This document shows positions 1,166-19,963 of a DNA stretch of 64,000 nucleotides, piece after piece. A program made the position numbers and the translations under genes. Position 1 is the first letter of the stretch; each line of letters opens with the position of its first letter. This DNA is from Candidatus Pacearchaeota archaeon (GTDB lineage: Archaea > Nanobdellota > Nanobdellia > Pacearchaeales > GW2011-AR1): positions 38,744 through 102,743 of the forward strand of contig JAFCGC010000001.1 in the NCBI GenBank assembly GCA_017608305.1, in the 5' to 3' direction. Under the pieces are notes generated by a model. It was not told the origin of the DNA and made no database searches. It worked only from the letters and a program-made list of their open reading frames with translations.

Positions 1166-2274
1166 AAACTGCTATAATCTGCATTGATGGGCTTGGAAAA
1201 GATTTAGTTACAAAAGAAAATACTCCTTTTTTGTATAAATTCGGGAAAGAGAATTATTTTTCTGAATTAAAAACCCTATTTGCGTTTACAGAGGAGTATA
1301 GTTTTTTTAGTGGACAAACCCCAAAACAACACGGGAAATGGTTTGAATTTGAAAAAACTAAAAAATCAATTTTTGGAAATATCTTTGTAAGGTTTTTCTC
1401 ATTTAATAAAAAGATAAGAGATTATGTTGGATCTTTAGTACAAATTTTGAAAAAAAGAACATGGCTAGCAAGAACATATAATATTCCTTCAAGTAAATTA
1501 AAATTTTTTGATTCAATAATCAAGGAAGGGTTATGGAATCTAGATTTTCTTAAGGATAAAAAAGTTGCCATGTATAAATGGCCCTTTATGATAAGTAAAA
1601 ATAAAGAAAATATCAAAAAAAAATTAATATTAAAATATGAAAATGATTCAGAAAGATTAAATAGGCTCTTTAGTATAAAAAACAAAGAGATTTATTATAC
1701 TCAATTAATGGAAATAGATAAAAATCTTCATAAATTTGGAAAAAAGAGTGAACAAGCAAAAAAATCTTTAAGAAAAATTGATAATTTAATAAAAAAATAT
1801 GTAGATAATTTTGAAAAAGAATGTGGATGGAATATTATTATTTGGTCGGATCATGGATTTGCAGACATACATAAATATATTGATATTGAAAAAATTCTTC
1901 CTAAAAGAAAAAATTATCTTTATTTTATTGCTGGAACAACAGTTCATTTTTGGTTTAAAGATAAAAAAACCAAAGAAGAAATTCTTTCCCAGATTTCGAG
2001 AAAAAAAGAGATTAAAATTTTAACAAAAAACCTGGCAGATAAATATAAAATTCCTTTTTCATCTAATTTTGGGGAAGTTATTTTGTATGTGGAAAAGGGT
2101 TCTTATTTTTTTCCAAATTTTTATCAGAAAGAAGAAAATGAAAAATTCCTAGGAATGCATGGATATCCCGACGACAAAGAATTAAATGGTATTTTTATTA
2201 CAAATATTGAAAAATTTAAGAAAAATAAAGTAAATAAAAGTTTAAAAATTGAAGAAGTAATCAAGAGAATATAA
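1162..2274 (+). CDS. Alkaline-phosphatase superfamily enzyme (type I phosphodiesterase/nucleotide pyrophosphatase-like)
   Basis: N-terminal 'IICIDGLG' metal-binding motif, 'WSDHGF' and 'GMHGYPDD' motifs typical of the AP/NPP core. Start overlaps the upstream stop (ATGA). Confidence 0.55.
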   Translation: MKTAIICIDGLGKDLVTKENTPFLYKFGKENYFSELKTLFAFTEEYSFFSGQTPKQHGKWFEFEKTKKSIFGNIFVRFFSFNKKIRDYVGSLVQILKKRTWLARTYNIPSSKLKFFDSIIKEGLWNLDFLKDKKVAMYKWPFMISKNKENIKKKLILKYENDSERLNRLFSIKNKEIYYTQLMEIDKNLHKFGKKSEQAKKSLRKIDNLIKKYVDNFEKECGWNIIIWSDHGFADIHKYIDIEKILPKRKNYLYFIAGTTVHFWFKDKKTKEEILSQISRKKEIKILTKNLADKYKIPFSSNFGEVILYVEKGSYFFPNFYQKEENEKFLGMHGYPDDKELNGIFITNIEKFKKNKVNKSLKIEEVIKRI

Positions 2275-2275
2275 A

Positions 2276-3517
2276 ATGGAAACAATAAAATATGATTTTG
2301 AGAAAGATAATTTAACTTTATATAAGCCCAAGAAAATGGAGGAAGTAGAAAAATGTATTGAAGAAATAATGGAAAGGAATAAGAAAACTCTTCCAAAAAA
2401 CAAAAAAGCTAAAATTCTAATTAAACCTAATTTCAATAATGATTTAAATGGCCTAACAGGAAATTCTAGTGATTTAAGAATTATAATTTCTGTAATAAAA
2501 TCTTTAAAAAAAAGAAAATATCAAAATCTAACTCTAGCCGATGGACCAAATTGTGGAGTTAATCATATTGGGATAGATGTGTTTTCTAGGTTATGTTTAA
2601 AAGAAATAGCAAAAAAATTCAAGATAAAATTAATTAATTTAAATAAGAGTGAAGGAAAAGAAATCCGCCTTACAACAAGTAAAAGTATTATTTCTAAATT
2701 ATGTTTAGAAGCAGATTTTATAATAAATATTCCTAAGATAAAAACCCATATGGAAGCAGGAATTACTGTATCTTGTAAGAATTATATAGGTTGTTTTCTC
2801 GGGACCGATAAAAGAAGGATGCATGATAATCTTGCTGCTAATATTATTAAATTAAATGAAATTATAAAAACAGATTTAATCATTGTAGATGGGCTAATTT
2901 GCATGGAAGGAAATGGCCCTGGAGATGGTATTTCTAAAAAAGTAGGTATTATTCTAGAAGGGCATAATCCCTATACTTTAGATTTCTTATGTAGTAAATT
3001 AATGGGGCTAAATTACAAAAAAATTGAATTTCTAAAATTAGCCATAAAGAAAGGATATATTTCTAACAAAGATGAAGAAAAACTAAAGAAAATAGCTCCT
3101 ATTGCAAAATTTCTTCCTGCAAAAAAAACAGTTTTTGGAAAAATATTTTTAAATAATTTTTTTATAGGAATAAGATTTCTAAAACCTCTTCAAAAAATCT
3201 TTGATAAAGGTTTTGTTCCTTGGTTTTTATTTAAATTAGGAATTAGACAAGATATCTATGTCCATGAAGAAAAAAACATAAAAAGATTATATGAAAAACC
3301 TAATTTAAACTCAAAAGAAAAGGGAGAAATAAAAAAATGCCTTGAAATTTATTGTCCTGTTAAATTAAAAAATCCAGATGACAAAAAATGTATTCAATGC
3401 ATGTATTGTTATCAGATTCTTCCTGAACTCATAAAATATGAAGGTTCACTAGGAGCATTTAAAATGCAAATAGATAGATTTGGAAAATATCTTAGGGGAA
3501 AATGGAAGACGAATTAA
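2276..3517 (+). CDS. DUF362-family protein with C-terminal 4Fe-4S ferredoxin-like Cys motif
   Basis: 'KILIKPNFN' N-terminus typical of DUF362. 'CPVKLKNPDDKKCIQCMYC' Cys cluster near the C-terminus. Confidence 0.45.
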   Translation: METIKYDFEKDNLTLYKPKKMEEVEKCIEEIMERNKKTLPKNKKAKILIKPNFNNDLNGLTGNSSDLRIIISVIKSLKKRKYQNLTLADGPNCGVNHIGIDVFSRLCLKEIAKKFKIKLINLNKSEGKEIRLTTSKSIISKLCLEADFIINIPKIKTHMEAGITVSCKNYIGCFLGTDKRRMHDNLAANIIKLNEIIKTDLIIVDGLICMEGNGPGDGISKKVGIILEGHNPYTLDFLCSKLMGLNYKKIEFLKLAIKKGYISNKDEEKLKKIAPIAKFLPAKKTVFGKIFLNNFFIGIRFLKPLQKIFDKGFVPWFLFKLGIRQDIYVHEEKNIKRLYEKPNLNSKEKGEIKKCLEIYCPVKLKNPDDKKCIQCMYCYQILPELIKYEGSLGAFKMQIDRFGKYLRGKWKTN

Positions 3518-4035
3518 ATGCTACTTATTTCAATAAAAATCCCTTAGTAAGGGTATTTTTTAAGGCAAAAACAAATTTGGCTATTAGAATGCTAAATTTA
3601 AAAAAAAAGGATTCTATACTTGATTTTGGGTGTGGGGCTGGCTGGTTGAAGAATAAATTAAAGAAACAAGGATATAATGTGGTTGGATTTGATGTCACTC
3701 CAGAACATACAGATATAAAAGATTATAAAAAAGTAAAGGCCAATAAAATATTTGCATTAGATGTATTTGAACATATTTCAAAGGATAAAATAAAAGAAAT
3801 AATTAAAAATTTCAAAAAAAATCCTGTATTTGATCTTGTTGTGGCCATACCCACAGAAAATTTAATTTCAAGAAAGATAAGAAGACTTTGTGGGAAAAAA
3901 GAAAAAGTTCCAGATCACATAACTTCTCTAAAAGAAATAAAGGAAATTTTGAAAAAAGAAAAACTATGTCTTGTAAAAAAAATTAATTATTTTACTATAA
4001 GTCATCTGTTTTTATTCAGGAAGCCTTGTAATTGA
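3502..4035 (+). CDS. Class I SAM-dependent methyltransferase
   Basis: Motif I 'ILDFGCGAGW'. Size about 177 aa. Confidence 0.55.
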   Translation: MEDELNATYFNKNPLVRVFFKAKTNLAIRMLNLKKKDSILDFGCGAGWLKNKLKKQGYNVVGFDVTPEHTDIKDYKKVKANKIFALDVFEHISKDKIKEIIKNFKKNPVFDLVVAIPTENLISRKIRRLCGKKEKVPDHITSLKEIKEILKKEKLCLVKKINYFTISHLFLFRKPCN

Positions 4036-5656
4036 ATTCGTATATTATTAAAACAGGTTGTTCTCCTTGATAAAAAGCTTGAACAGGGGTTACTCTATCT
4101 GGATATTCTTGAGGATAATTTGGGGCCCAAGTATATCGGGAATTTGCTGCTTGTTCATACATTGAAAGTACAAGATATTTGGGTTTTTCTCTTTCAATAA
4201 ATTCATAAAAACCCGTAGCATTTTGAGGTTCCATTCCTCTCCTAGGAGCAAGATAAAAATTATAGGTGGGTCTTTCTGAATAATAGGTATTTTGGGGAGT
4301 AGATGCAGTAATTATAATATCATCAGGCTCGGAATTTGCTTTTATCCATTCTCCTGCTTGTTTGACTTCTAAAAAAGAAGGTTTTTTTGACTCAACTAAG
4401 TCATTTCCAAATTTCATATTTGGAGTGAGTAATAATAAAAGAGCGAGAAAAATAACTAAAAATGTGGCTTTTTTCCTTATTTTAAAACTTCTATGGATAT
4501 AATTAGCAAGTTTGGGAAGAGGGAAAATAGCAATTAAGAATAAAAAAGGAAGAGTTTGCATCATATACCTTTGTTCTAAATGAGGAGCAATACGTCCTAA
4601 GATTAAAAAACAAGAAACAATCCAAGTGAATATAAACAATCTTTTTTGAATTTTTTTATTTGAAAAAATCTTATCAAATCCTAAAACCAAATCTCCAAAA
4701 AAATAAATAACTCCTATGAGGAAAAGTATATAGATTGGACTAAATACAAACAAAGAACTATATCCTTTGGAATTTCCATCTAAAATATAAGGCAAATTTG
4801 TAAAATACACAAGAAGTTTTGAACTATCTCCAACCCCTCCTACTTCCCCTGTCTCTGAAATTCCTTCAACCCCAAAATAATAATTTAAAACATCTGAAAC
4901 CGGATTTCCAAAATGTGTTGTGTGCATAACCATTTGGGGGACAAAAATCAGGGCAAAAATACCTACTGCACCCCAAAGTTTTTTATTTTTTAGAAATTTG
5001 AATTTCTCTTTCATGAAAACCATTGTTAAAAAAGGGATAGCAAACATAGAATACTGCATTCTTGTTAAACAAGTTAAAGCAAAAAATAGGCCAAAAAGAT
5101 AAATAAATTTATTACCTTCTTTTAAAACATAACCTTTCCAAAAAAATAGAGTTGCCGTCAGTAGAAAAAAAGTTGCAGGGATATTTGTTAAGGGTCTTCC
5201 ACTGAAAAAGATATATATCCAAGAAGAAGCTAAAGCAAGTGAAGTGAGTAAGGCTAATTTGCTGTTAAACATCTTTTTTATTAAAAGATAAGAAACAAAA
5301 ATTATCCCTGTTGAAAATAAAACTATAAAAAATCTCAGGGTTATTTCTCCTAAACCTAGCTTGAATAAAATCGCACCAAATAAAGCCCAGAAAAAACCTC
5401 TCCGATAATACCACATATCAATAAGATTAGAGTTCACTCCTGCCCATTTTTTTGCTGTAGCAAGATAGTCTGCAGCATCCCACCATATTGCTTGGTCTTT
5501 TGTTTTAAGAAACATCCAAAATCTTGCTATAAAAGCTAAAATCAAAATTGCCAAGAAAGCTTTATCATAATTATTTTCTACCCAGCCAAATAATCTTTTT
5601 TTCCATTTGTTCTTTGTTTTTTCAATTGTTTCTTCTCTTCTTTCAGAGTCTGTCAT
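4016..5656 (-). CDS. Multi-pass membrane glycosyltransferase, GT-C fold (ArnT/PMT/dolichyl-phosphate-mannose mannosyltransferase-like)
   Basis: 546 aa with more than 10 hydrophobic segments. Sits in a glycan locus. Architecture resembles GT39/GT83. Confidence 0.5.
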   Translation of the reverse strand: MTDSERREETIEKTKNKWKKRLFGWVENNYDKAFLAILILAFIARFWMFLKTKDQAIWWDAADYLATAKKWAGVNSNLIDMWYYRRGFFWALFGAILFKLGLGEITLRFFIVLFSTGIIFVSYLLIKKMFNSKLALLTSLALASSWIYIFFSGRPLTNIPATFFLLTATLFFWKGYVLKEGNKFIYLFGLFFALTCLTRMQYSMFAIPFLTMVFMKEKFKFLKNKKLWGAVGIFALIFVPQMVMHTTHFGNPVSDVLNYYFGVEGISETGEVGGVGDSSKLLVYFTNLPYILDGNSKGYSSLFVFSPIYILFLIGVIYFFGDLVLGFDKIFSNKKIQKRLFIFTWIVSCFLILGRIAPHLEQRYMMQTLPFLFLIAIFPLPKLANYIHRSFKIRKKATFLVIFLALLLLLTPNMKFGNDLVESKKPSFLEVKQAGEWIKANSEPDDIIITASTPQNTYYSERPTYNFYLAPRRGMEPQNATGFYEFIEREKPKYLVLSMYEQAANSRYTWAPNYPQEYPDRVTPVQAFYQGEQPVLIIYEFNYKAS

Positions 5657-5680
5657 TATACTACCATAAAATACTAGTTT

Positions 5681-7075
5681 TTATTTGTTATTATTCAAAT
5701 AGGCTATTGAAGCTTCTTTATCTAAACCCTCTATAATGTCCATTTTTTCAAATTCACTCAAATCAACCCACTTAAAATCTTCTATATCTTGGGTTTTTGA
5801 AGCATAATTATTTTTAGTCTTTACGAGATAACATTCCCCGTTAGTTTTTGATCCATCTTCTCTAGGATATTCATATTCTGAAATCTTGATAATTATTTTT
5901 TCAATCTCTAAATTCGTTTCTTCTTTTATTTCTCTACTTAAAGCTTGTTCTATAGATTCTCCTTCTTTAACAACCCCTCCTGGAAAAGCCCATTTATTTG
6001 CATGTATTTCTCCTTTTTTTCTTTTTATAATTAAAAATTTGTTATTTTCTTTATCTAAAATTATTGCATTAACAGCTTTAACTGGAGCTTTTTCATTTAA
6101 ACTCCCAATAACTTCTTGAACAGAAATACTATTCACAAGCTCTTCATCATAAAGATCCATTTTTTCTGGAAAAAAGCTCTCTAATAAAGGAGAAGTGATT
6201 TTAGTAAGAAGGCCATACCCTTCTACCTCATGGGGGGTGGTGCAAAAAAACAAAGCTATTGTTGGTTTTTTTAAGGCAAGAGAAACATGTAATGCAAAAC
6301 TATCTAAACACACTACCTTATCACAAACACTTATTAAAGAAGCAAATTCTCCATTTGTATTTAAGGGGTTATTTCTGATAATTTCTATTCCTTTTTCCTT
6401 TAATTCTTCATATAGTCTAGAATGGTCTTCTGTTTCATTAGGACCTCCGAAAAATAAAATGCTGTGTCCTAGGTTTGCTGCTTTTTCTATAAACTCTTTT
6501 ATTTTTTCCTTAGACCATTTTTTAGAAGGCCACCTAGGAGAAGCACCTATATGGATTCCTAAGATTTTTTTAGAAATTAATGAATTGTCTTCAATAAATT
6601 TTTTAGCATAATTCTGATCTTTTTCTGTTAAAAGAATTTCTGGGAGGTTTTTCTTATGAGGTAATTTGGCTGCTTCAAACATCATTTCTTGATAGGTTTT
6701 TCTATTAGCTTTTTTCAATTCGTCGTCGAATAAAGTATTAAGATAATATTCTGCTTCAAGATTAAATGCTGCTGGAAAGCCTTGTTCAGAATAAAAACCA
6801 CATTTTTCTTTGGCTTCAATTTCTATGGCTATTTTAGTCGCTTCATCTTCTATGTCAAAGTTATATAAAATATCAACAGGTTCTTTAGGATAACTATCTA
6901 AATTAAAGATTTTATTAATTAAGGGGTTATTTTCAATAAGGTCACTAATATTGGATTTAGTTATCCAACTTATTTCTGAAACAGGAAATTTTTCTTTAAT
7001 TGCCTTGAGTAAGGGAAGTGTCCTAATTACGTCCCCTTTCGCTCCTAATTTGATAATTAATATTTTTTTCATCAT
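5681..7075 (-). CDS. GT9 (ADP-heptose:acceptor heptosyltransferase-like) glycosyltransferase fused to a C-terminal NUDIX hydrolase domain
   Basis: N-terminus 'KILIIKLGAKGDVIRTLPLLKAIKEKFP' is typical of RfaC/RfaF. C-terminal Nudix box 'GGVVKEGESIEQALSREIKEETNLE' fits GX5EX7REUXEEXGU. Confidence 0.65.
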   Translation of the reverse strand: MMKKILIIKLGAKGDVIRTLPLLKAIKEKFPVSEISWITKSNISDLIENNPLINKIFNLDSYPKEPVDILYNFDIEDEATKIAIEIEAKEKCGFYSEQGFPAAFNLEAEYYLNTLFDDELKKANRKTYQEMMFEAAKLPHKKNLPEILLTEKDQNYAKKFIEDNSLISKKILGIHIGASPRWPSKKWSKEKIKEFIEKAANLGHSILFFGGPNETEDHSRLYEELKEKGIEIIRNNPLNTNGEFASLISVCDKVVCLDSFALHVSLALKKPTIALFFCTTPHEVEGYGLLTKITSPLLESFFPEKMDLYDEELVNSISVQEVIGSLNEKAPVKAVNAIILDKENNKFLIIKRKKGEIHANKWAFPGGVVKEGESIEQALSREIKEETNLEIEKIIIKISEYEYPREDGSKTNGECYLVKTKNNYASKTQDIEDFKWVDLSEFEKMDIIEGLDKEASIAYLNNNK

Positions 7076-7111: not shown

Positions 7112-7534
7112 ATGAAGAAAAAATCTAAGAAAATATATCTTGCGGGAAAATTAGAAACAAAAAATGAAAGAGAACAATTAGAAGAAATCGATAAAATCTG
7201 TAAATTGTTAGGATTTGAAACTTTTCTTCCCCATAGAGAAATAGGAATTTGTAAGGGAATAGATGATGTAAAAAGAGTCTTTGAGGGAGATATAATCAAA
7301 GGTATGAAAAAGGTTGATTTAGTAATAGCTATTTTAGATGGTTTACATGTTGGTGCTGGAACTGCTTGGGAGTTAGGTTATGCTTATGCAAAAAAAATTC
7401 CCACAGTGGGATTAAAAACAGATGAGCCTGTAGAAGAAGCTATAGAATATTTAAGTTCAATTTTAATTGGATCTATGCCTATTGTTAAAAGTGTAGAAGA
7501 ATTAAAAGAATTTTTAATCAAAAGGCTTAGTTGA
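7112..7534 (+). CDS. Nucleoside 2-deoxyribosyltransferase-like protein
   Basis: 'KIYLAGKL...' N-terminus and a ~140 aa flavodoxin-like pattern. Confidence 0.35.
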   Translation: MKKKSKKIYLAGKLETKNEREQLEEIDKICKLLGFETFLPHREIGICKGIDDVKRVFEGDIIKGMKKVDLVIAILDGLHVGAGTAWELGYAYAKKIPTVGLKTDEPVEEAIEYLSSILIGSMPIVKSVEELKEFLIKRLS

Positions 7535-8422
7535 GTTAATTTCTGTTTCTCTCCATCCATCAGAATACTTCTGTTTAGATCTTATTTGCTTTAAAGCCTG
7601 AATATAAAGATATAATCTAGCAAAATAAAGTTGAAAGGCCCACCAAAACTCGTTTATTGTTTTGGGGTGTTTTAAAATAAAAAATACTCCTTCCTTAATT
7701 TCATTGAAAAAAGATTTTGTCCTTGGCATATTAGGTGCTATTTTATTAAGATTTTCATGAGCTTTAATATTTCTTATTTTTTGATTGATCCAATCTTTCC
7801 AACCAGTTGGATTTTTTACATAAACTTCTGCTCTTTCTACATAATTTGTTCTATATCCTTTTTTCCAAAATAAATAAGGAATAATAGCATCCTCTGAAGT
7901 TTCTAAAGGAAATTCTTGAATAATTCCATTTCTAATTGCAAAAAGATAACCAGAACATTCAAAAAATTTCTTGTTTTTTGATAATTTCTTTCTTGTTTTG
8001 TGTATTCCTGAAAAAAGAAAATGAGACCAATATCCATATTTTGTATTTCTGGCATCAATTGAAATAGGCCTCCCTGTAATACAGCCTATTTTTGGATCTT
8101 CAAATTCCTCTATTATTTCCCTTATTGTGTTTTCTGAAACATAAACATCTCCGTCTGTTAAAATAAAAATATCTTTTTTATTATCTGAAAAGTTTTCTTG
8201 AAAGAGAATATTTAAGGCATAACTTTTTCCTTCTCCAGGATCTAAAAAGAATTCTACTCTTTTGTCATTAATTTCTCTTTGTAAAAATTCTCCAACTTCT
8301 GGAAAAGGATCAACCACTATTATCTTGAATTTTTGTTTTATTTTTTGGTTTAAAAAAACCTTTACGGCTCTTATAGTGGCTTTTGGTTCATTGTAAGAAG
8401 TTATTATTATAGTTATCATCAT
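7514..8422 (-). CDS. Family 2 glycosyltransferase
   Basis: 'ITIIITSYNEPKATIRAV' N-terminus and a DxD-type 'TDGDVY' motif. Confidence 0.65.
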   Translation of the reverse strand: MMITIIITSYNEPKATIRAVKVFLNQKIKQKFKIIVVDPFPEVGEFLQREINDKRVEFFLDPGEGKSYALNILFQENFSDNKKDIFILTDGDVYVSENTIREIIEEFEDPKIGCITGRPISIDARNTKYGYWSHFLFSGIHKTRKKLSKNKKFFECSGYLFAIRNGIIQEFPLETSEDAIIPYLFWKKGYRTNYVERAEVYVKNPTGWKDWINQKIRNIKAHENLNKIAPNMPRTKSFFNEIKEGVFFILKHPKTINEFWWAFQLYFARLYLYIQALKQIRSKQKYSDGWRETEINSTKPFD

Positions 8423-8431: not shown

Positions 8432-8626
8432 TTAAACAAGATCTATGGGGTAGTCTTCAGGCCGAATAAGAATTATCTTTTCATTTAAAGGAGTTATTAC
8501 TGAAATTCTTACCTTGCTTTTTCCATGTTTTCCAATATTGGATATCTCTACATCTTCAACACCACATTCATTACCTGCAATTTTTATTTTATCTCCTTTT
8601 TTTATGTCTTTAGCTTGTTTTTTCAT
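8432..8626 (-). CDS. aif5A: Translation initiation factor 5A-like, N-terminal SH3-like domain only (truncated aIF5A)
   Basis: 'GKHGKSKVRISV' matches the hypusine-loop 'GKHGHAK' region. Only 64 aa. The C-terminal OB domain is absent. Confidence 0.45.
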   Translation of the reverse strand: MKKQAKDIKKGDKIKIAGNECGVEDVEISNIGKHGKSKVRISVITPLNEKIILIRPEDYPIDLV

Positions 8627-8657: not shown

Positions 8658-9320
8658 TTATTTAGAATAAAAATATCTTACAAAGTATATAAAAGGGGTA
8701 TCTAAAACAGCTACCAACAACTTTGCTATAAATAATCCAATCATTATTGGTAAAATAGGAAACAGGCCATAAAAGGCTATTACAACAAAAATAACAGTGT
8801 CAATTGCTTGACTTATGGTTGTTGAAAGATTATTTCTAAACCATAAATGTTTTGATTTTGTTTTTTTCTTCCAAAATGCAAAAGACCATATATCATGAGT
8901 TTGGCTAGATATATATGCTACTACAGAAGCCAAGACAATTCTCCAAGTATTTCCGAGAACTAAAGAAAACTGTTCTTGATAGCCCCAAAAACTGGCTCCT
9001 TGCCATTCAATAGCAATAAAAATTACTGCTAAAGAAAGTATGCTTGCAAAAAATCCACTCCAAACAGCTTTTTTGGCTATTTTTTTTCCATAAAATTCAA
9101 CTAAAATATCTGTTAATAAAAAGCTAGCAGAATAGGCAATTATTCCGGCAGGTATTGCAAAACTCCAAAAAGACACTAATTTATTAGCCACAACATTAGA
9201 AATTACAATCAACCCCACAAAAGCTCCAATTATTAATTCAACTCCTTGTTTTTTAGCAAGAATAGCGATTAGACTAACAAAAAATAAAAGTGCTAAAATA
9301 TAAATTAAGAGATCTAACAT
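8658..9320 (-). CDS. YhhQ/QueT-like (queuosine/preQ precursor transporter family) membrane protein
   Basis: About 220 aa with 6 TM segments. Adjacent and divergent to queC. Confidence 0.45.
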   Translation of the reverse strand: MLDLLIYILALLFFVSLIAILAKKQGVELIIGAFVGLIVISNVVANKLVSFWSFAIPAGIIAYSASFLLTDILVEFYGKKIAKKAVWSGFFASILSLAVIFIAIEWQGASFWGYQEQFSLVLGNTWRIVLASVVAYISSQTHDIWSFAFWKKKTKSKHLWFRNNLSTTISQAIDTVIFVVIAFYGLFPILPIMIGLFIAKLLVAVLDTPFIYFVRYFYSK

Positions 9321-9361
9321 TTCTGCATAAAATTTATATAGCTTAAAAAGATTGCGGAACT

Positions 9362-10063
9362 ATGGTAAATGCTATTGTGTTATGTTCGGGGGGAATTGAT
9401 AGTGTTACAACCGCGTATTATGTTAAAAAAAAGTTAAACTATGAAAAAATAATTTTTTTGTTTTTTGATTATGGGCAAAAAACAGTTCAAGAAGAAAAAA
9501 GAGCTTCAATAATTAGTGCAAAAAAACTAGGTGCAAAATTTATAGAGATTAAATTAGGGTGGTTAGGAAAAATTTCTAATTCCTTAATAAACAAGGAAGG
9601 AGAAATTAAAAAATTAAAAAGAGAGGAACTAAAAGATACTGCAGAAGAATCTAAAAACTGGTATGTTCCTTGTAGAAATACTGTTTTCTTAACTTCTGCT
9701 TTAGGTTTAGCAGAAGCTTTTTTTATAAAAAATAAAGAAATTTATGATCTTTTTGTTGGTTTTAAAAATGAAGGTAAAGAAGGTTATCCAGATACCACTC
9801 CAGAATTTGTCAAAGAAATGAATAAATTATCAAAAGTTTCTTGTGCAAGGGCCTTCAAAATTAAAGCTCCTCTAATAAAAAAAGATAAAGAAGAGATAAT
9901 AAAATTAGGAACTAAACTTGGAGTAGATTATAAAGATAGTTTTAGTTGTTATGTTGGGAAAAAGATTCATTGTGGATCTTGTTTAGCGTGTAAATTAAGG
10001 CAAGAAGGATTTTATTGGGCGGGATTAAAAGATCCAACTTCTTATCAAATAAAAGATAATTAA
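9362..10063 (+). CDS. queC: 7-cyano-7-deazaguanine synthase QueC (archaeosine/queuosine precursor)
   Basis: PP-loop 'LCSGGIDSVTTAYY'. C-terminal Zn ligands 'CGSCLACKLR'. Confidence 0.8.
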   Translation: MVNAIVLCSGGIDSVTTAYYVKKKLNYEKIIFLFFDYGQKTVQEEKRASIISAKKLGAKFIEIKLGWLGKISNSLINKEGEIKKLKREELKDTAEESKNWYVPCRNTVFLTSALGLAEAFFIKNKEIYDLFVGFKNEGKEGYPDTTPEFVKEMNKLSKVSCARAFKIKAPLIKKDKEEIIKLGTKLGVDYKDSFSCYVGKKIHCGSCLACKLRQEGFYWAGLKDPTSYQIKDN

Positions 10064-10064
10064 C

Positions 10065-11603
10065 CTAAACCCTATATCTTACTCTATCATACCAAACTTT
10101 AAATCCAACAGGCATACTCCTATATGCTGGTTTAAGAATTCTTTCTCTAATCAAATCCATATAACTAACAAAAAATAAAACAATTCTTGTTCTAAAGGGG
10201 TTTCTCAAATTTCTTTTGATTCTGTGTGGTTTTAAAAGATAATTTATTAATTTATTTGGAAGAAGTCCAAATCTTTTTCCTGTGCTAACTCCTCTCATTA
10301 AATTTAAGATCAAAACAAGGTATATATTTTTTCTTTTTAACAAAATATGGGCACTCCTATCCCAATAATTAAGAGTGACTGCTGAATCTTTTGTAGTTTT
10401 TATTATTCCTTCTTCTACAGCTCTTTGATGTAGTTTTGACCCATGAAAAAAGACCAAATTATTCACAGAAAGAAAATAGGGCTTAGGAATCTTTTGTAGT
10501 AATCTAATCATATTTACAACATCTTCTGGCCTTTCATAGGGGTTACAAGTAATCACATCATACATCACAGCCAAGTTATCCTTATACTTATTAATTATTC
10601 TTGCAGCATCTAAAACTTGTTTATCTGTTTGAAATCTATGGTAAACTTCTTTATTTACTCTTTCAGAACCTTGAATACCTATAATTATGTCTGTGCAACC
10701 CGCTTCTACTAAGAGATTTATTTTTTCTTCTGAAATTGTATGGGGATCAGATAAACATTTAAATCTCAATCCGATTTGTTCTTTATATTTTTGAGAAAAT
10801 TCCTTTATTTGTTCAAGTGGTCTAAGGGAGAAAGTATCATCCCTTATATCAAAATAACTTAAACTTGGAAATTTTTTTCTTAATTTTAAAATACCATCTA
10901 TAATGTAATCTATACTATGCCATCTAACTATTTTTTTTCTTTTTCCTTTATACAATTCATTCAATAGACTATTACTGCAATAATCACATCCATGAGGACA
11001 ACCTCTTCCTGTTAAAAAGAATATTGCTCCATCAAGATCTTGTTCTGAAAATTTCCTTATTTTATGTTTATCTAGGATAAAATGGTCTTGAGTATTATAG
11101 TCTGGCAAGGGTATTTCATCTAGGTTATCTATCAAAGACCTTACGGGATTTTTTGTTATCTTATTTTCTTGTTTAATCCATAAATTTTTAATTTTATTTA
11201 CTGATTTTCCTTTCTCAAGAGCATTAACTAAATCTATTATCACTCCTTCTCCTTCTCCAACGCAAACAAGATTACAATGTTTAATGCATTCTTCAGGAGA
11301 AATTGTAGCATGTATTCCTCCCCAAACAAGAGTTTTTTCAGGAAATTTTTTTTCTAGAAATTTTATTATTTGTTTTGCTCTTGGAGCTGTAGAAACAAAA
11401 GATGAAATTCCAATTAGTTGAGAATCAGCACAAATTCTCACCAATTGATTAAGTTCTTTTTTAGTGTAAAATTTAGAATAATCCTCACTGAGAGTCATAA
11501 AGACGGTCTTTACTTGATGTTTTTTTTCTTTTAACACAGAGGAGATTGTTCTTATTCCTTGATCAGAAGGATAAGTTGCAGCAGAGATAAGAGTTATTTG
11601 CAT
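10065..11603 (-). CDS. B12-binding domain radical SAM enzyme (class B; putative methyltransferase, Fom3-like candidate)
   Basis: N-terminal B12-binding-like Rossmann region. Radical-SAM 'GCPHGCDYCS' motif. 512 aa. Confidence 0.65.
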   Translation of the reverse strand: MQITLISAATYPSDQGIRTISSVLKEKKHQVKTVFMTLSEDYSKFYTKKELNQLVRICADSQLIGISSFVSTAPRAKQIIKFLEKKFPEKTLVWGGIHATISPEECIKHCNLVCVGEGEGVIIDLVNALEKGKSVNKIKNLWIKQENKITKNPVRSLIDNLDEIPLPDYNTQDHFILDKHKIRKFSEQDLDGAIFFLTGRGCPHGCDYCSNSLLNELYKGKRKKIVRWHSIDYIIDGILKLRKKFPSLSYFDIRDDTFSLRPLEQIKEFSQKYKEQIGLRFKCLSDPHTISEEKINLLVEAGCTDIIIGIQGSERVNKEVYHRFQTDKQVLDAARIINKYKDNLAVMYDVITCNPYERPEDVVNMIRLLQKIPKPYFLSVNNLVFFHGSKLHQRAVEEGIIKTTKDSAVTLNYWDRSAHILLKRKNIYLVLILNLMRGVSTGKRFGLLPNKLINYLLKPHRIKRNLRNPFRTRIVLFFVSYMDLIRERILKPAYRSMPVGFKVWYDRVRYRV

Positions 11604-11653
11604 TTCTTAACACAAAAAATACAATTTATAAGGATTATGGAGCTCAAACAAAA

Positions 11654-12796
11654 TTATACTAATAATTGCTTGTATTCTTTCATATATCTTTTATAGATAG
11701 TATCCCAATCAAAATCCTTGGATTTTTCAAAGTTATTCTTAGAAAATTTTTTGGCGAGTTTGGGATTATCTAAAACTTCTAAAATACGTTTTTTTAAATT
11801 TTTTAAATCTCCATATTCAACTAAAAAACCATTTTTTCCATCTTCCATCTCATAAGGAATTCCATTTACAGGAGAAGCCACAATAGGCAATTCAGATGCC
11901 ATTGCTTCAAACAAGGTCAAAGGAAGGCCTTCCCTATAACTTGGAAGAGCGTAAACATCTGCAGCCTGATACATTTCAGCAATATTCTCTTTTCCACGAA
12001 TTGGTCCAAGATATTTCATATTTTTATGGCCTTTAATTAAATTCTCAACTTCATTTGCCTTGCCTTCATCAGGACCTACCCAAACAAAAGCAATGTCTTT
12101 TCTTTCTTTAGAAATTTCTATTGCTACTTGTGCAAGTTTTTCAGGTCCCTTAGTAGGATTTAATCTACCAAAAAATAAAACTAGTTTTTTTTCTTTTATT
12201 TTATTTTTCTTCTTAAAATTATTTTTCTTTACTTTCTTAAAGAGAATTTTATCTGTTCCATTTGGAATAACTTCTGTTTTATTTTTCCCACCATATTTAT
12301 TTAAGATACCTAATTCCCAAGGAGTTATTGAAACTATTTTATTGATGAACCTAAAAGAAAGTTTGTTTAAAAAAAAATCATTTATAATCAAGAAAAATTT
12401 TAATTTGGCAGGCCTAAAAGAGATATCTGTCCAAGGACAATGAGTTGTGTGCACATGTTTGAATCCTTTTAATTTGGCAAGAATTCCTACAAACAAAATA
12501 TAATCATGTCCTGAAACATGGCTATGGACAATATCAAATTTTCCTTTAAGACCCCACAATAAAGAAGGCCAAAAAAAAGTATTAAAAGACAATCTAAACC
12601 AATAAGGAAGTCTATGAACATGAACTCCTTCAATTATTTCTTCTTTTATTTTTATTCTTTTATTTTTATCTGAATCACAACAAAAAACATGTACTTCGTG
12701 ACCTTCTTTTACTTGTCTTTGTGCTAGCTCATACATAACTTGCTCTACACCCCCAAAAGTAGGAATATAAAACATATTAACATGAGCTATTCTCAT
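11654..12796 (-). CDS. Family 4 (GT-B) glycosyltransferase
   Basis: 'MRIAHVNMFYIPTFGGVEQ' N-terminus. C-terminal 'EGLPLTLFEAMA' EX7E-like motif. Confidence 0.7.
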   Translation of the reverse strand: MRIAHVNMFYIPTFGGVEQVMYELAQRQVKEGHEVHVFCCDSDKNKRIKIKEEIIEGVHVHRLPYWFRLSFNTFFWPSLLWGLKGKFDIVHSHVSGHDYILFVGILAKLKGFKHVHTTHCPWTDISFRPAKLKFFLIINDFFLNKLSFRFINKIVSITPWELGILNKYGGKNKTEVIPNGTDKILFKKVKKNNFKKKNKIKEKKLVLFFGRLNPTKGPEKLAQVAIEISKERKDIAFVWVGPDEGKANEVENLIKGHKNMKYLGPIRGKENIAEMYQAADVYALPSYREGLPLTLFEAMASELPIVASPVNGIPYEMEDGKNGFLVEYGDLKNLKKRILEVLDNPKLAKKFSKNNFEKSKDFDWDTIYKRYMKEYKQLLV

Positions 12797-12888: not shown

Positions 12889-13548
12889 ATGACTGTGTAT
12901 AAAGACTTAAAAAAATTTCAAAAAAGTGTGGAGGAAGATGATTATGTGGTTTACTATTTTTACAGAAAACTTTCTAGGCCAATTAGTGCTTTAATGATTA
13001 AACTGGGGCTCAATACTTTTGTTGCATCATGGTTTACCTTTTTTTCAGATCTTTTTGCAATGTATCTTATCTATAAAGGAAGTTTTGTGATTGCTGGATT
13101 ATTTGTGATTTTAGCTTATGTTTTTGATTGTTGTGATGGGGAAATAGCAAGATATGACAAAGCAAGAAAGAAAATGAATCCAAACAGGATGTATGGGGCC
13201 TATCTTGATGAAATTTTGGGTGTTTTAGGTTTTTTTGGAGTAATTATATTCTTCAGCTATAAAATAGATCTTCTTTTGTTTGGAATTTTAGGAGGTTTAG
13301 GTTTATTAATGATAAATTTTAGCTGTTATGTTGCAAAGGATATTTTTCCAGAGAAACAAAAATTAGCTAAAAATCTTGAAAAAAAAGTTTTTGGAAATTT
13401 AAAAGGAAGAATTGGGTTTAGTGGGGGGGTTCAAAGAATATTAATTGCCTTAGCGATTATCTTTCATAGTGCTTTTTTACTATTTGTATTTGTGGCTTTG
13501 ATGAATGCTTTTTGGATTTTGAAATTTTGGATATATAGAAAACAATAA
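12889..13548 (+). CDS. CDP-alcohol phosphatidyltransferase family membrane protein
   Basis: 'DCCDGEIARYDKA...GAYLDEILG' resembles the DG(x)2AR...G(x)3D(x)3D motif. Several TM segments. Confidence 0.5.
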   Translation: MTVYKDLKKFQKSVEEDDYVVYYFYRKLSRPISALMIKLGLNTFVASWFTFFSDLFAMYLIYKGSFVIAGLFVILAYVFDCCDGEIARYDKARKKMNPNRMYGAYLDEILGVLGFFGVIIFFSYKIDLLLFGILGGLGLLMINFSCYVAKDIFPEKQKLAKNLEKKVFGNLKGRIGFSGGVQRILIALAIIFHSAFLLFVFVALMNAFWILKFWIYRKQ

Positions 13549-13554
13549 ACAAAA

Positions 13555-14244
13555 TTATTTTATGAGTGATTCTGCTTTTTTTAGATCATTTATGTCATCA
13601 ATCTCCATACATAATTCTTTATCATAAAACAAGGGTTTTAATCTAATTTTATCTGCATAAGGTTCAATTGCTTCTTCAGCATAACAATTAATTTTTCCTT
13701 GATCAACAAATTCCTTGATAGATTTAAGCCAAGTTAAAAAAGATTTTTTTGAAAATTTATACAAGGGCATGACTAAATTACCCTTAAAATCCACACCTAT
13801 TTTTTTAATTAAACCTTTTTCTATTTTTGCCTTAAAATCTTTTCCAGTAGAATATGGATTTATATGTGTTAATGCCGAATTTTTTTCTCTATGCTGTATT
13901 AATTTTTTTAATAACTTCTCTTCACAAACCAAATCTCCATGAATAAAGAGTATATCGTCATCAATCAAATTTTCTAGGTTTAATAAAGAACATATGTAAC
14001 TTCCTTTTTGTTCCGGAGGATCTTGAATAATCTTTGAATCTAAAGAAGGATACTCTCTGTATAAGAACTCTTGAATTAATTCAGATTTATATCCTGTTAA
14101 AAAAATTATTTCTTTTATTTCTAACTTCATTAAAGAATCAAGCATATAATTAGCTAAAGGTTTTTCTTTTATAGGAACAAGGAATTTTGGAACTGTTAAA
14201 TTCATTCTAGTTCCTAATCCTCCTGCAAGGATAATAGCTTTCAT
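13555..14244 (-). CDS. LicC-like nucleotidyltransferase (CTP:phospho-base / phosphonate cytidylyltransferase family)
   Basis: '[14 protein letters not shown]' N-terminus. 229 aa, the same size as LicC/PntC-type enzymes. Confidence 0.6.
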   Translation of the reverse strand: MKAIILAGGLGTRMNLTVPKFLVPIKEKPLANYMLDSLMKLEIKEIIFLTGYKSELIQEFLYREYPSLDSKIIQDPPEQKGSYICSLLNLENLIDDDILFIHGDLVCEEKLLKKLIQHREKNSALTHINPYSTGKDFKAKIEKGLIKKIGVDFKGNLVMPLYKFSKKSFLTWLKSIKEFVDQGKINCYAEEAIEPYADKIRLKPLFYDKELCMEIDDINDLKKAESLIK

Positions 14245-14245
14245 T

Positions 14246-15349
14246 TTAGTATAAATTATTTAAAATTTTTCTTAAAGAATCTTTTGTTAATAATCTAGGA
14301 TTGTTTTTAACTCTTTCTGGAGAAAATCCTTTTTCAACAAGAATCTCAAGATCTTTTACATGTACTCCTAAATTTGATAAGTTTGTTTCAAGCCCAATAT
14401 TACTCATTAAGTTTTTTATTTTTTCTCGAGCTTGGCTTACATTTTTTACTCCTAAAAGATTTACTAGATTGTTTATTATATTTTGAACATATTTTTCTCC
14501 TCTTTTATCTAAACAATCTTCTGGTGTTACTCCAAAATTATATTCTAACATCTGCCCTAGAGTTAATCCTACAGCATGGCCATGAGGTATATTGAAGTAA
14601 GAGGTGATTGGATAAGAAATTGAGTGACAAGCAGTTGTTTTTGAAATATTTATTGCTTTACCAGCTAAATTAGCTGCTTTCATAACATTCTCTTTAGATT
14701 CATTTGTAGGATTATTTACTGCTTGTTCTAGATTATTTAAAAGTAATTTTATTGATTTCTGTGCAAATTGTTTTGATTTTTCTATTGAATTAATAGACCA
14801 ATAAGACTCTATTGCTTGGCCTAAAGCATCTATTCCTGTTGAAGCAGCTATTTTTTTTGGAAGAGAAAAAGTTAATTCTGGATCACAAATTGAATAATTT
14901 GGGAGAGTTATATCTAAATTTCCTTTAGATTGTTTTTCTTTTCCAGTATAATAAACAATAAAAGAAGTTGCTTCACTTCCACTTCCTGCAGTTGTAGGTA
15001 TTGCTATTAAAGGTTTTTTATGACTAATTTTTTTATAAATTTTAATTGCCTTAGCAACATCTATTGCACTTCCTCCTCCTACAGCAATAATTGAATCATA
15101 TTTTCCTTTATTAAAAATTTTTGTGGCTTTTTTTATTTCACTTAATTGGGGATTTGGAGAGAAATTAGAAAATCTTTCATAATCTATGTTATTTTTATCC
15201 AAAATATTCTCTATTTTTTTTCTTGCCCCTGACAAGATAAATGAATTTTTTCCAGTGACTAAAAAAACTTTTTTTAGATTTTCTTTTTTTAAAATTGTTT
15301 CTAATTTATTTAAACTTCCAAGTCCAAAATATTCTTCTTGAGAGATCAT
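14246..15349 (-). CDS. Iron-containing alcohol dehydrogenase (phosphonoacetaldehyde reductase candidate, FomC/PhpC-like)
   Basis: 'IAVGGGSAIDVAKA' Fe-ADH motif. Position directly follows Ppd. Confidence 0.6.
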   Translation of the reverse strand: MISQEEYFGLGSLNKLETILKKENLKKVFLVTGKNSFILSGARKKIENILDKNNIDYERFSNFSPNPQLSEIKKATKIFNKGKYDSIIAVGGGSAIDVAKAIKIYKKISHKKPLIAIPTTAGSGSEATSFIVYYTGKEKQSKGNLDITLPNYSICDPELTFSLPKKIAASTGIDALGQAIESYWSINSIEKSKQFAQKSIKLLLNNLEQAVNNPTNESKENVMKAANLAGKAINISKTTACHSISYPITSYFNIPHGHAVGLTLGQMLEYNFGVTPEDCLDKRGEKYVQNIINNLVNLLGVKNVSQAREKIKNLMSNIGLETNLSNLGVHVKDLEILVEKGFSPERVKNNPRLLTKDSLRKILNNLY

Positions 15350-16476
15350 TTATTCAAAAATTCCATAAAAAATCTTTTATTTTCTAAAGGAGTATTTGTA
15401 GGCCTTCCTAACTCTTGTCTTGAACCTTTTTTTACTTTAACCACAACCATTTTAGGTCCTTTTTCATTCTTTAAGATACTCATTGTTTGAATTAACTCTT
15501 GGCTTGTTTCAACTTGGGATGCAAATCTATAACCACATCCCAATGCAATTTTTGAAAAATCAATATTATCTGAAATAGTTGGTTGGCCTCCTGTTGAATC
15601 ATAAGAACCATTATCAAAAATTAAATGTGTTAAATTTTCTGCTTTACTTGATCCAATATTTGCTAAAGCCCCCATTTGCATTAATGCTGCTCCATCTCCA
15701 TCAAAAACATAAATAGGTTTAGAAGGTTTTTGTAATGCTATTTCATTAGCAATAGAGGCTGAGCACCCCATACTTCCTACTGTTAAAAAATCTTTTTCAT
15801 GGCTTTGTTTTTTTTCTTTTCTATATTCAAATAATTCTCTAGATGTTTTTCCTGTTGTTGAAACAATTATTGCTTGTTTTTCTAATCCTCCCAAAATGGT
15901 ATGAATGGCTTGTTCTCCAGTCATTTCATACTTTCTTTTAGAAATATTTTGGGTTTCATATTTTTCAAAAATGCCTTTTTTAATTATAATTGCTGAAGCA
16001 TATTGGGTTTTTTCTGCTTTTGTTTTTGCCCATTCTATGGTCTGTTGCGCTTGCTCAATATTATCTGGTAAAATCTGAAAAGGAATCTCTAAAGTTTCTA
16101 ACTGAGATAACATAACTCTCCCCATCATTTTGTGTTGGGGCTCGTCTTTTAACTCGGGCTCTCCTCTCCATCCAACCATCAAAACTACAGGCATCGAATA
16201 TACTTCTTTAGCCATTAAAGAGGTTAAAGGATTTACTGTTTTTCCTAAACCAGAATTTTGCATATAAATTACTCCAATATTTCCGGTTGAAAGATGATAT
16301 CCTGCAGCAAGAGCAGTAGCTTCACATTCATTTACAGCAATTCTATTTGTCAATTTTGTCCCATTATTGTCTGCTAAAAATTTCATCCAATCCTTAAAAG
16401 TTGAGTCTGGAACTCCTGAAAAAAAAGTTAAATCATTTTTACTGAATATTTCTGCAATTTTTTCACATTTTATCAT
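15346..16476 (-). CDS. ppd: Phosphonopyruvate decarboxylase (TPP-dependent)
   Basis: TPP-binding '[16 protein letters not shown]'. About 376 aa. Immediately downstream of PEP mutase. Confidence 0.7.
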
Positions 16477-17795
16477 TTTCTTTCTGGAATTAAATCTAAT
16501 ATTTCTTTAATCGGTAAACAAAATTCATCTGCCTCTAGACTTCTTTCATTTTCAAGAATTGATTTTGCTGTTTTTACCATAGCAGGATAAGCACTCCTAA
16601 TTAAATGATTAGCATAGATTATTATGTTTGCTCCAATTTCTTCAAGTTGTTTTTCAGTAAGATGATTATAAGTTGTAGGAACAACTACAAGAGGTACTTT
16701 GTGTGGAAAATTGGAATATTCTTTGCAAAATTCAATTAATTCCCTTGCATCTTTCTCCTTACTATGGATCATTATTGCATCTGCTCCTGCCTCTATATAT
16801 GCTCTTGCTCTTAATAGGGCTTCATAAATCCCTTTTTTTAAAATAAGGCTTTCAATTCTAGCAATAATCATAAAATCATCTGTTACTTGTGATTTTTTGC
16901 CTCTAGAAATTTTTTCTGAAAAATTTGATATTTCATCTTGGATTTGAACCACATCTGTTCCAAGTAGAGAATTTCTTTTCAACCCTACTTTATCTTCTAT
17001 AATAACTGCAGAAACACCTAATCTTTCAAGACTTCTCACCATAAAAGCAAAATGTTCAATTTCTCCCCCATTATCTGCATCTAAAATAAGAGGTTTAGTT
17101 GTTGATTCTAATATTTGAGAAACAGTTTCTAGTCTTGAAGTTAAATCTATGACTCCAATGTCTGGTTTTCCTTTTGCTGTTGAATCTGTTAAACTACTAA
17201 TCCAAATGCCATCAAACTCTTTTACCCCCCCTTCTTTTACTACAGATGTTTTTTCAACAATTAATCCTGTAATTCCATTATGGGCTTCTAAAAATCTTAC
17301 AACTGGTTTGGCCTCTAATAATCTTTTTAAAGTTCTTTTTCTAATTTCAGGAGTTGTTCCTATTTCACGTAAAGCTTTATTTAATTGGTCTGAGGAAACA
17401 TCTTGGATGCGAGGGACTTCAATTAATTGACCTCCCCATTCTTCAAGAACTTTTATTACTTTTTCTCTTGTTGAACTTTGAATTCCGGTTTTCCAATCAT
17501 CACCATGAACAACATAATGAGGCCTTAATTGCCTTAAATTATCAGTATAATCTAATGTATTTTGAGGAATAACTTCTTTCACTCCTTTTATATTTTCAGC
17601 AATAATTTTTCTTTGGTCATAAGTCAAAAAAGGTAGGCGTTTATAACTTGCAATTGCTTTATCCGTTAATAATCCGATAATGATTTCTCCTAATTCTCTT
17701 GCCTTTTCTATTGTTTCTAAGTGTCCGTGATGCAACAAATCAGCACTAATGGCAACATAGACTTTTTTTATTATACTAAAATCTTGATTTTCCAT
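16473..17795 (-). CDS. pepM: Bifunctional cytidylyltransferase (HxGH type) / phosphoenolpyruvate phosphomutase (Fom1-like architecture)
   Basis: N-terminal '[19 protein letters not shown]' cytidylyltransferase motif. C-terminal ICL/PEP-mutase fold with 'AVIIEDKVG' (EDK motif). Confidence 0.75.
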
Positions 17796-19929: not shown

Positions 19930-19963
19930 AAATTTTTAAAAAGATTTAGATCTGAGAAAGGAA

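Follow-up and report, generated by a model that had tools for sequence, protein, structure and literature searches.

A GT9 glycosyltransferase fused to a Nudix hydrolase domain in DPANN archaea

We analysed a window of 64,000 nucleotides from an assembly of Candidatus Pacearchaeota archaeon (GCA_017608305.1, contig JAFCGC010000001.1, forward-strand positions 38,744 to 102,743). The minus-strand gene at 5681-7075 of this window is one uninterrupted open reading frame (ORF) of 464 amino acids, which joins an N-terminal glycosyltransferase domain of family GT9 to a C-terminal Nudix hydrolase domain. The features of the gene are listed below; A1 is an alignment of 29 diverged fusion proteins, on which all figures for residue invariance and domain conservation are based.

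5681..7075, minus strand: whole fusion gene, GT9 plus Nudix, 464 amino acids, ATG start (ORF list, Pfam, identical protein P0001)
6101..7075, minus strand: GT9 (GT-B fold) glycosyltransferase domain, amino acids 1-325 (Pfam PF01075, alignment A1, profile alignment, Foldseek)
6080..6109, minus strand: inter-domain linker, amino acids 323-332 (junction comparison, linker-length distribution)
5702..6079, minus strand: Nudix hydrolase domain, amino acids 333-458, minimal MutT-like fold of about 130 residues (Pfam PF00293 and PF14815, NCBIfam, PDB matches, Foldseek)
5909..5977, minus strand: Nudix box GVVKEGESIEQALSREIKEETNL, amino acids 367-389 (translation, alignment A1)

A sequence-only reading of the same DNA had claimed that this single ORF carries a complete Nudix box as well as a GT9 domain. 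The ORF list and Pfam bear this out, with Glyco_transf_9 and NUDIX both scoring above their cut-offs, and an identical protein (P0001) is recorded in both NCBI and JGI. A search for the same fusion in other genomes, also proposed in that reading, found the architecture in about 50 further clusters at 90% identity (45-61% identity), which come from independent samples and sources of DPANN assemblies; where the source of a cluster is named, it is Pacearchaeota or Nanoarchaeota. Because the same architecture recurs in so many clusters from independent samples, the fused reading frame is not an artefact, and an assembly or frameshift error is ruled out by this recurrence together with the kept length of the linker. 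In A1 the linker varies in sequence (25% mean pairwise identity), its length lying between 16 and 21 residues in 28 of the 29 proteins, and the mean identities of the two domains are 55% and 52%. Both halves of the protein are under selection, and the predicted catalytic residues of both are intact and invariant in the 29 aligned members.

An AlphaFold2 model built from 29 homologues had a mean predicted local distance difference test (pLDDT) score of 91.1 and a predicted template modelling (pTM) score of 0.73. When this model was searched with Foldseek, the N-terminal two-thirds matched the GT9 enzymes 3tov, WaaF (1psw) and WaaC (2h1h), and the C-terminal third matched BdRppH, Ap4A hydrolase, NudG, Ndx1, MutT, MutT2 and NudI. 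On an evenly balanced judgement, the gene would encode a true two-function enzyme of the cytoplasm in a DPANN archaeon from the Pacearchaeota/Woesearchaeota group. The architecture is uncommon, as the sequence-only reading had supposed: among the best 150 matches in 1.84 billion representatives clustered at 50% identity, GT9 plus Nudix occurred in two full-length proteins (P0046 and P0079) and one fragment. Since the family falls to two or three such representatives, we regard it as a narrow, lineage-restricted invention, a genuine combination of known kinds of enzyme, i.e., a GT9 transferase and a Nudix hydrolase. Such proteins already carry automated labels, one example being 'ADP-heptose:LPS heptosyltransferase/8-oxo-dGTP pyrophosphatase MutT'. 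No description of a heptosyltransferase-Nudix fusion, or of a Nudix enzyme acting on heptose nucleotides, was found in the literature searched (including that on DPANN and Woesearchaeota), and a comprehensive survey of Nudix enzymes (PMC5389931) mentions no link to glycosyltransferases.

The GT9 domain was recognised by Pfam Glyco_transf_9 (PF01075) over residues 128-290 (71.6 bits, with a cut-off of 22; E=8e-20), and the solved GT9 protein 3tov aligned to residues 3-283 (E=3e-14). The two-Rossmann-domain GT-B fold was recovered by Foldseek, with 3tov as a match at E=4e-20 and a template modelling score on the target of 0.72, as well as 1psw and 2h1h. Invariant in the 29 sequences are D15 of the N-terminal G-D-V motif, W182-P183-S184, D258 and H263; the motif W182-P183-S184-(K/R) and the donor-site motif D258...H263 are conserved and, in a profile alignment, line up with those of 3tov and WaaF (1psw). 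We take the equivalent residues in WaaC to be D13, K192 (in its PxKxW motif) and D261 (in its DS-x3-H motif). The domain is therefore predicted to be a catalytically intact GT-B glycosyltransferase. It is a member of the family and not an orthologue of WaaC, WaaF or WaaQ, because its scores are far under the equivalog cut-offs (TIGR02193, 69.3 versus 185.3; TIGR02195, 57.2 versus 134.6; TIGR02201, 58.1 versus 170.2).

The Nudix domain was recognised by Pfam NUDIX (PF00293) over residues 333-443 (65.2 bits, with a cut-off of 21.1; E=8e-18) and by PF14815 (36.8 bits against 35). Its box, GVVKEGESIEQALSREIKEETNL, fits the pattern G-x5-E-x7-R-E-U-x-E-E-x-G-U, the sole deviation being the last, variable G, which is N. 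The sequence-only reading had named the catalytic glutamates of the box as the residues to check; E373, E382, E385 and E386 are all present, as is R381, and these five are invariant in the 29 members together with G367 and L389. A Nudix box was found in every fused or adjacent homologue. These invariant residues rule out a degenerate, inactive Nudix domain, and we predict a catalytically intact pyrophosphohydrolase.

As judged from its sequence, nothing fixes the substrate of this hydrolase, all of whose best matches are under equivalog thresholds. The closest in sequence or structure are NudI (PDB), MutT (NCBIfam MutT/PRK08999 and PDB), NudG/CTPase, RppH and ApnA hydrolases. MutT-type Nudix structures align to residues 324-405 of the fusion protein, and past residue 405 the C-terminal region of the domain is unaligned with MutT. 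The scores with the MutT equivalogs TIGR00586 (52.7 versus 97.9) and NF008044 (46.3 versus 148) fall short, and the MutT base-recognition stretch around N119 presumably has no counterpart, as compared by eye with the E. coli MutT sequence. The domain scores 20.6 bits with NudE (ADP compounds hydrolase), for which the cut-off is 169. ADP-ribose pyrophosphatases are reportedly marked by a proline that follows the Nudix box at a distance of about 15-16 residues. With that downstream position variable and the best matches lying elsewhere, the domain is not recognisably a member of the ADP-ribose/ADP-sugar pyrophosphatase subfamily, although homology to the ADP-ribose pyrophosphatase domain of NadM-Nudix (2qjt) can be detected (E=2.8e-10).

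In relatives in which the two genes are split, the stop codon of GT9 usually shares an ATGA with the start codon of Nudix. The linker DNA of the window gene holds AAATGAAAAAG, which is read through in frame and resembles this overlap. These two observations point to a fusion that arose by small indels from neighbouring, translationally coupled genes. In a neighbour-joining tree of the GT9 domain, which has no bootstraps, is poorly resolved and is indicative only, fused, adjacent and Nudix-less forms were interleaved, and a basal clade carried adjacent but separate genes. This suggests an old GT9-Nudix pairing with repeated fusion and loss.

Three smaller ORFs run antisense in this region, one of 138 amino acids inside the GT9-Nudix gene (6195-6611, plus strand) and smaller ones at 5886-6119 and 5548-5736. 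We regard them as ORFs that arose by chance in AT-rich DNA, because they are wholly or largely antisense to genes conserved on the opposite strand.

The genes that flank the fusion gene are part of a conserved locus, and are as follows:

4016..5656, minus strand: PMT_2/GT-C membrane glycosyltransferase, downstream and co-directional after a 24-nucleotide gap, conserved locus member (Pfam PF13231, PF02366, PF03901; synteny)
7112..7534, plus strand: nucleoside 2-deoxyribosyltransferase-like gene, divergent, with a 36-nucleotide spacer to GT9 (Pfam PF05014; synteny)
7514..8422, minus strand: GT2 glycosyltransferase, conserved locus member (tblastn, 64% identity to the GT2 of locus L001; weak NCBIfam PgaC/NodC-like match; synteny)
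8432-8626, minus strand: aIF5A-like ORF of 64 amino acids (N-terminal half of aIF5A only, NF003076, E=6.7e-8)

A scan of species-representative genomes yielded at least 574 confirmed GT9 relatives, of which the best 80 loci were compared. About 40 of these are syntenic DPANN loci, and others come from metagenome-assembled genomes of further Woesearchaeota and of Methanosarcinales. The claim that GT9 enzymes are rare in archaea thus does not hold for this lineage. Among the matches listed, the closest homologues were all from DPANN archaea. The core order, shared by the 40 or so DPANN genomes and by several metagenome contigs, is QueC, the 64-residue aIF5A-like ORF, GT2, the divergent Nuc_deoxyrib_tr-like gene, GT9, a variable stretch and PMT_2. 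The PF05014 gene, whose 3' end in the window overlaps the convergent GT2 gene by 21 nucleotides, adjoins GT9 in nearly all syntenic loci, whether Nudix is present or absent.

The Nudix domain is fused to the C-terminus of GT9 in the window and in loci L001, L007-L009 and L089. A separate Nudix gene directly follows GT9, overlapping it or a few nucleotides away, in L003, L006, L011, L032, L036, L038-L040, L091 and L169-L171, and directly precedes it in L005; in L004 (protein P0052) there is a triple fusion of GT9, CTP_transf_like and Nudix. All five stand-alone members of the Nudix subfamily whose context was examined abut GT9. As a negative control we used 76 metagenome loci from a scan with the Nudix profile, dominated by generic MutT-like genes, and GT9 lay near none of them (0/76). 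Conversely, none of 46 loci of more distant GT9 genes (bacteria, Methanosarcinales and other Woesearchaeota paralogues) had a Nudix gene within 10 kb, and the non-syntenic GT9 loci showed neither an ORF nor a box of Nudix type. One bacterial candidate for the pairing, L042 (Thermodesulfobacteriota), was rejected: its tblastn match ran to residue 436, but there was no Nudix ORF or box there.

Among 41 orthologous GT9 loci, 7 were fused, 8-9 had an adjacent Nudix gene and 24-26 had no Nudix within 10 kb. Because most of these loci lack it, Nudix is dispensable for transfer. The dependence is one-way: the close Nudix members that were examined need GT9 beside them, and GT9 does not need Nudix. 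Comparative genomics supports a functional link between the two halves, with a Nudix subfamily that appears dedicated to this GT9.

The nearest subfamily-like Nudix outside a GT9 context (about 40% identity) belongs to a tandem double-Nudix protein in L092, an unrelated archaeal contig, where its first domain is the nearest relative of the domain studied here without linkage to GT9. An aRF1-like protein is encoded nearby (1811-3301 and 4826-5671 of that contig for the two genes) and, by eye, has an apparent mini-intein right after its GGQ motif (GGQ|C...VVHN|S).

In relatives of the locus, the genes between GT9(-Nudix) and PMT_2 include the two halves of HldE, i.e., a PfkB kinase (rfaE_dom_I, E=5e-72) and a nucleotidyltransferase (rfaE_dom_II, E=3e-50 and 2e-45). 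Locus L087 has a full HldE and a GmhB-like HAD phosphatase, and L001 has an HAD-IIB phosphatase. In other proteins GT9 itself is fused to a GmhB-like HAD domain (P0108) or to a nucleotidyltransferase alone (CTP_transf_like; P0145). It is chiefly because of these 'Rosetta-stone' fusions with heptose-activation enzymes that we think GT9 may use a nucleotide-activated heptose. For ADP-L-glycero-beta-D-manno-heptose, the donor of the LPS heptosyltransferases, the support is contextual, in the form of HldE/GmhB-like genes beside or joined to orthologues. Genes of rfaE type adjoin 8 of the 15 loci with Nudix and 2 of the 26 without it (Fisher p=0.002-0.005, odds ratio about 14), in a test that ignores phylogeny and includes some loci picked through their Nudix gene. 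As L087 and L001 have an HAD phosphatase as well as Nudix, a role for Nudix as a substitute for the GmhB phosphatase is ruled out.

Two further fusions, of a PfkB kinase with a cupin resembling mannose-6-phosphate isomerase (L038, 9266-10588) and of an RpiB/LacAB-type isomerase with an rfaE_dom_II-like nucleotidyltransferase (L012, 10329-11210), hint at a replacement of the SIS-type isomerase GmhA in these archaea. In L087, the most complete version of the operon, a gene for a 338-residue protein with no significant Pfam family (10852-11868) separates HldE from the GmhB-like phosphatase; it is a candidate for a missing enzyme of the pathway, perhaps an isomerase or epimerase. Experiments have shown that archaea possess working NDP-heptose biosynthetic enzymes (Tang et al., Science 2024, as summarised in PMC11461863), leaving open the role of these sugars there.

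Within the window, the first 30 kb form a predicted island for the biosynthesis of cell-surface glycans. Besides the PMT_2/GT-C, GT9-Nudix, GT2, GT4 and GT6 transferases and the nucleoside-2-deoxyribosyltransferase-like gene, it holds radical-SAM/SPASM and B12-radical-SAM enzymes, a phosphodiesterase, a DUF362 protein and a methyltransferase. It also has genes for dTDP-sugars (an RmlB-RmlA fusion, RmlC and an RmlD-like protein), a DegT aminotransferase, a formyltransferase and a Wzx-like flippase. Two parts of the island are listed here by gene:

12889-17795, four genes on the minus strand and one on the plus strand: phosphonate-type module (Pfam), consisting of the next five entries
16473-17795, minus strand: CTP_transf_like and PEP-mutase (phosphoenolpyruvate mutase) fusion
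15346-16476, minus strand: thiamine pyrophosphate (TPP) decarboxylase
14246-15349, minus strand: iron-type alcohol dehydrogenase (Fe-ADH)
13555-14244, minus strand: nucleoside triphosphate (NTP) transferase
12889-13548, plus strand: CDP-alcohol phosphatidyltransferase
18064-20854, plus strand: RmlB-RmlA fusion (621 amino acids; dTDP-glucose 4,6-dehydratase and glucose-1-phosphate thymidylyltransferase), then a GT6-family glycosyltransferase

From its gene content, the phosphonate module suggests that a lipid or glycan of this DPANN archaeon is decorated with phosphonate. A weak rfaE_II-like match at 16473-17795 was rejected as a heptose gene, being the phosphonate enzyme with the CTP_transf_like and PEP-mutase domains; this CTP_transf_like domain is the only one in the window. 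The GT6 family is uncommon in prokaryotes.

The aIF5A-like ORF at 8432-8626, which may be a truncated, single-domain aIF5A, bears a hypusine-loop-like GKHGKSKV and keeps its position across about 40 DPANN loci; its neighbourhood in L006 includes deoxyhypusine synthase, ornithine/arginine decarboxylase and an arginase-family gene. At 8658-10063 a Vut_1 transporter (YhhQ-like, putatively for a queuosine precursor) lies beside QueC, and the two form a predicted 7-deazaguanine module, whose synteny with the glycan locus is constant. In addition to the aIF5A-like ORF, the window (G+C about 29%) has one 5S rRNA gene and four tRNA genes. A scan of it for promoters and terminators, with a sigma-70 model that is not applicable to archaea, gave nothing above chance.

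From the architecture, the motifs, the pairing and the link to heptose genes we infer a heptose donor, an acceptor and a substrate for the Nudix domain. GT9 would most probably move heptose from a nucleotide-heptose (of ADP-heptose type, with HldE/GmhB-like synthesis) to a lipid-linked or glycan acceptor, which the adjoining GT2 and PMT_2/GT-C enzymes would then handle. The Nudix gene, once a separate but coupled neighbour, would have been fused to GT9 several times through loss of the overlapping stop and start, and its product would hydrolyse a nucleoside-diphosphate compound of the GT9 pathway. The likeliest substrate would be surplus or wrong nucleotide-heptose donor, yielding a nucleoside monophosphate (NMP) and heptose-1-phosphate. 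A second candidate is the nucleoside diphosphate (NDP), a by-product that would inhibit the GT-B enzyme and would be converted to NMP and phosphate. Nudix would in this way tune the pool of donor or by-product at the transferase, as is thought for Gmm/WcaH, NudK and UDP-X diphosphatase. We give a probability of about 0.5 to this reading, i.e., that Nudix is a pyrophosphohydrolase dedicated to the pathway, with the nucleotide-heptose donor or the NDP by-product as its substrate. It is the most economical one because it accounts together for the invariant catalytic residues, the linkage of Nudix to GT9 and the association with donor-making enzymes.

Several observations weigh against this reading. 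The GT9 domain is far under the WaaC/WaaF/WaaQ equivalog cut-offs (69 bits versus 185), and the GT9 family in CAZy is not solely heptosyl-transferring. The nearest relatives of the Nudix domain are minimal enzymes acting on (d)NTPs, CTP, ApnA or RNA caps (NudI, MutT, NudG and RppH), not ADP-sugar hydrolases, and position 404/405 is P in the window protein and variable (L/D/S/K and others) across the family. Most orthologous GT9 loci (about 60%) have no Nudix within 10 kb. Besides the limits of the rfaE-Nudix test given above, one block deletion between GT9 and PMT_2 could yield the same correlation. No HldE, PfkB or GmhB homologue was found in the 64-kb window; the supply of donor would therefore be encoded elsewhere, or be different. 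Finally, hydrolysis of a donor beside the enzyme producing it amounts, if unregulated, to a futile cycle.

The sequence-only reading had also tied the Nudix half to ADP-sugars. The functional coupling of the two halves stood up in comparative genomics, but a recognisable ADP-sugar type of Nudix did not, the matches being to NudI, MutT, NudG, RppH and ApnA hydrolases. The coupled removal or proofreading of donor or by-product that it proposed is plausible, as a reasonable hypothesis and not as a finding, because the Nudix domain is not of a recognisable ADP-sugar type and is dispensable for GT9, and no genes for ADP-heptose synthesis were found in the window.

The main alternative is that Nudix is a hitch-hiking housecleaning enzyme, i.e., a MutT/NudI-like sanitiser of (d)NTPs or other non-sugar substrates that was linked in an operon and then neutrally fused, with no biochemical coupling to GT9. 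The best family and structure matches (MutT, NudI, NudG and RppH) fit it, as do the lack of Nudix in most GT9 loci and the ease with which small indels can fuse genes that overlap as ATGA in compact genomes; no other ORF of the window has a Nudix box, so that the fused domain is the only one there. However, the adjacency has outlasted a swap of gene order (L005) and, in P0052, the arrival of a third domain, and close members of the subfamily abut GT9 wherever their context is known, whereas generic MutT-like genes never do so in the 76 control loci. An essential housecleaning enzyme should also persist elsewhere after its loss from the locus, but no close homologue was seen in other contexts, the nearest being the L092 domain at about 40% identity. 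Together with the presumed lack of the MutT base-recognition region, these points make the explanation somewhat doubtful, in our view.

A second possibility is that Nudix scavenges the by-product, turning the released ADP or other NDP into NMP and phosphate and so relieving product inhibition; the PF05014 protein might in turn process this NMP (to base and ribose-5-phosphate) in organisms lacking de novo nucleotide synthesis. GT-B transferases are commonly inhibited by their own NDP product. Minimal relatives of the domain act on nucleoside di- or triphosphates (YmfB, 4nfx/3dku; MutT2, with bound CDP/CMP; NudI), and almost all syntenic loci have a PF05014 gene lying divergently beside GT9. That gene, however, is equally conserved beside Nudix-less GT9 and does not co-vary with Nudix, general hydrolysis of ADP would drain the adenylate pool, and no NDPase signature can be read in the sequence. 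We consider scavenging as the sole role unlikely.

It is also rather improbable, we think, that Nudix is an integral catalytic part of an as yet undescribed archaeal nucleotide-heptose 'metabolon' and performs a dedicated step that has no bacterial counterpart. The varied fusions among GT9, HldE-type nucleotidyltransferase, GmhB-type phosphatase and Nudix are what such an assembly would be made of. The step might be, for example, the editing of promiscuous ADP-, CDP- or UDP-heptose products of the archaeal nucleotidyltransferase so that only the correct donor reaches GT9, or else the recovery of nucleotides, by DPANN cells auxotrophic for them, from donors that are spent or wrongly made.

A non-hydrolytic Nudix fold, either an EvaA-like 2,3-dehydratase or a binding-only regulatory domain, is the least credible: EvaA-type enzymes are two-domain proteins of about 470 residues and none was among the top 50 structural matches, whereas the domain studied here is a single unit of 130 residues with a canonical hydrolase box and invariant catalytic Glu and Arg, for which the Pfam scan gave only Nudix families of note. 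Nudix-superfamily 2,3-dehydratases do act on NDP-sugars (PMC8987622) and the locus is rich in sugar-modifying enzymes, but an EvaA-like dehydratase is ruled out on size, box and structural matches.

If the preferred reading of a pathway-dedicated hydrolase, or of one acting on the by-product, is correct, this would be the first Nudix enzyme for heptose nucleotides and the first to be physically fused to a glycosyltransferase, and it would offer a simple in vitro system for studying control of donor pools in uncultured DPANN archaea. The locus is in any case a candidate consumer of archaeal nucleotide-heptose, with a GT9 that sits in a surface-glycan island and is repeatedly fused to heptose-activation enzymes, and it adds a previously undescribed accessory, a Nudix subfamily known only beside this GT9. 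Were a metabolon to exist, archaeal NDP-heptoses would for the first time have a physiological role. Should Nudix be merely a housekeeping MutT, the family would be a clean example of how overlapping genes in streamlined genomes can fuse repeatedly and neutrally.

Among known systems, the GT9 half resembles WaaC and WaaF (2h1h, 1psw) and the uncharacterised 3tov in its GT-B fold, its N-terminal G-D, its P-x-K/R-x-W motif and its (N/S)DS-x3-H donor site, and it resembles WaaC and WaaF in that the GT9 gene is associated, in relatives, with heptose-activation genes of HldE/GmhB type. The identity of the fusion protein to these solved structures is only 14-19%. Unlike WaaC and WaaF, it occurs in an archaeal host that has no lipid A/Kdo (3-deoxy-D-manno-octulosonic acid) acceptor, it has a Nudix domain attached to its C-terminus, and the neighbours of its gene are GT2, PMT_2/GT-C and radical-SAM enzymes rather than genes for the core of lipopolysaccharide (LPS).

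The Nudix half shares with MutT, NudI and NudG (1mut, 6dt3, 2rrk, 3gwy) a fold of about 130 residues, a complete box and the upstream context '...KR...W-F-P-G-G', but differs from them in scoring under every equivalog cut-off and in being fused or adjacent to a glycosyltransferase. Nudix enzymes do occur among genes for glycan precursors, namely Gmm/WcaH (GDP-mannose mannosyl hydrolase) and NudK (GDP-mannose pyrophosphatase) (PMC5389931), and the UDP-X diphosphatase SP_1669 (PMC3655063). As with our protein, these hydrolases are encoded among glycan-biosynthesis genes, and theirs act on the nucleotide-sugar precursors of the pathway. They are, however, separate proteins of other Nudix subfamilies, none of them fused to a glycosyltransferase; Gmm has an altered box and UDP-Xase an extra helical domain, both unlike the Nudix domain of the window. 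NadM-Nudix (NMN adenylyltransferase/ADP-ribose pyrophosphatase; 2qjt, 2r5w) differs in that the nucleotidyltransferase of the P0052 type is rfaE_dom_II-like (heptose-1-phosphate adenylyltransferase) and not an NMN adenylyltransferase, and the window protein has no such domain; in its layout NadM-Nudix is the counterpart of P0052, with a cytidylyltransferase-like adenylyltransferase placed upstream of Nudix.

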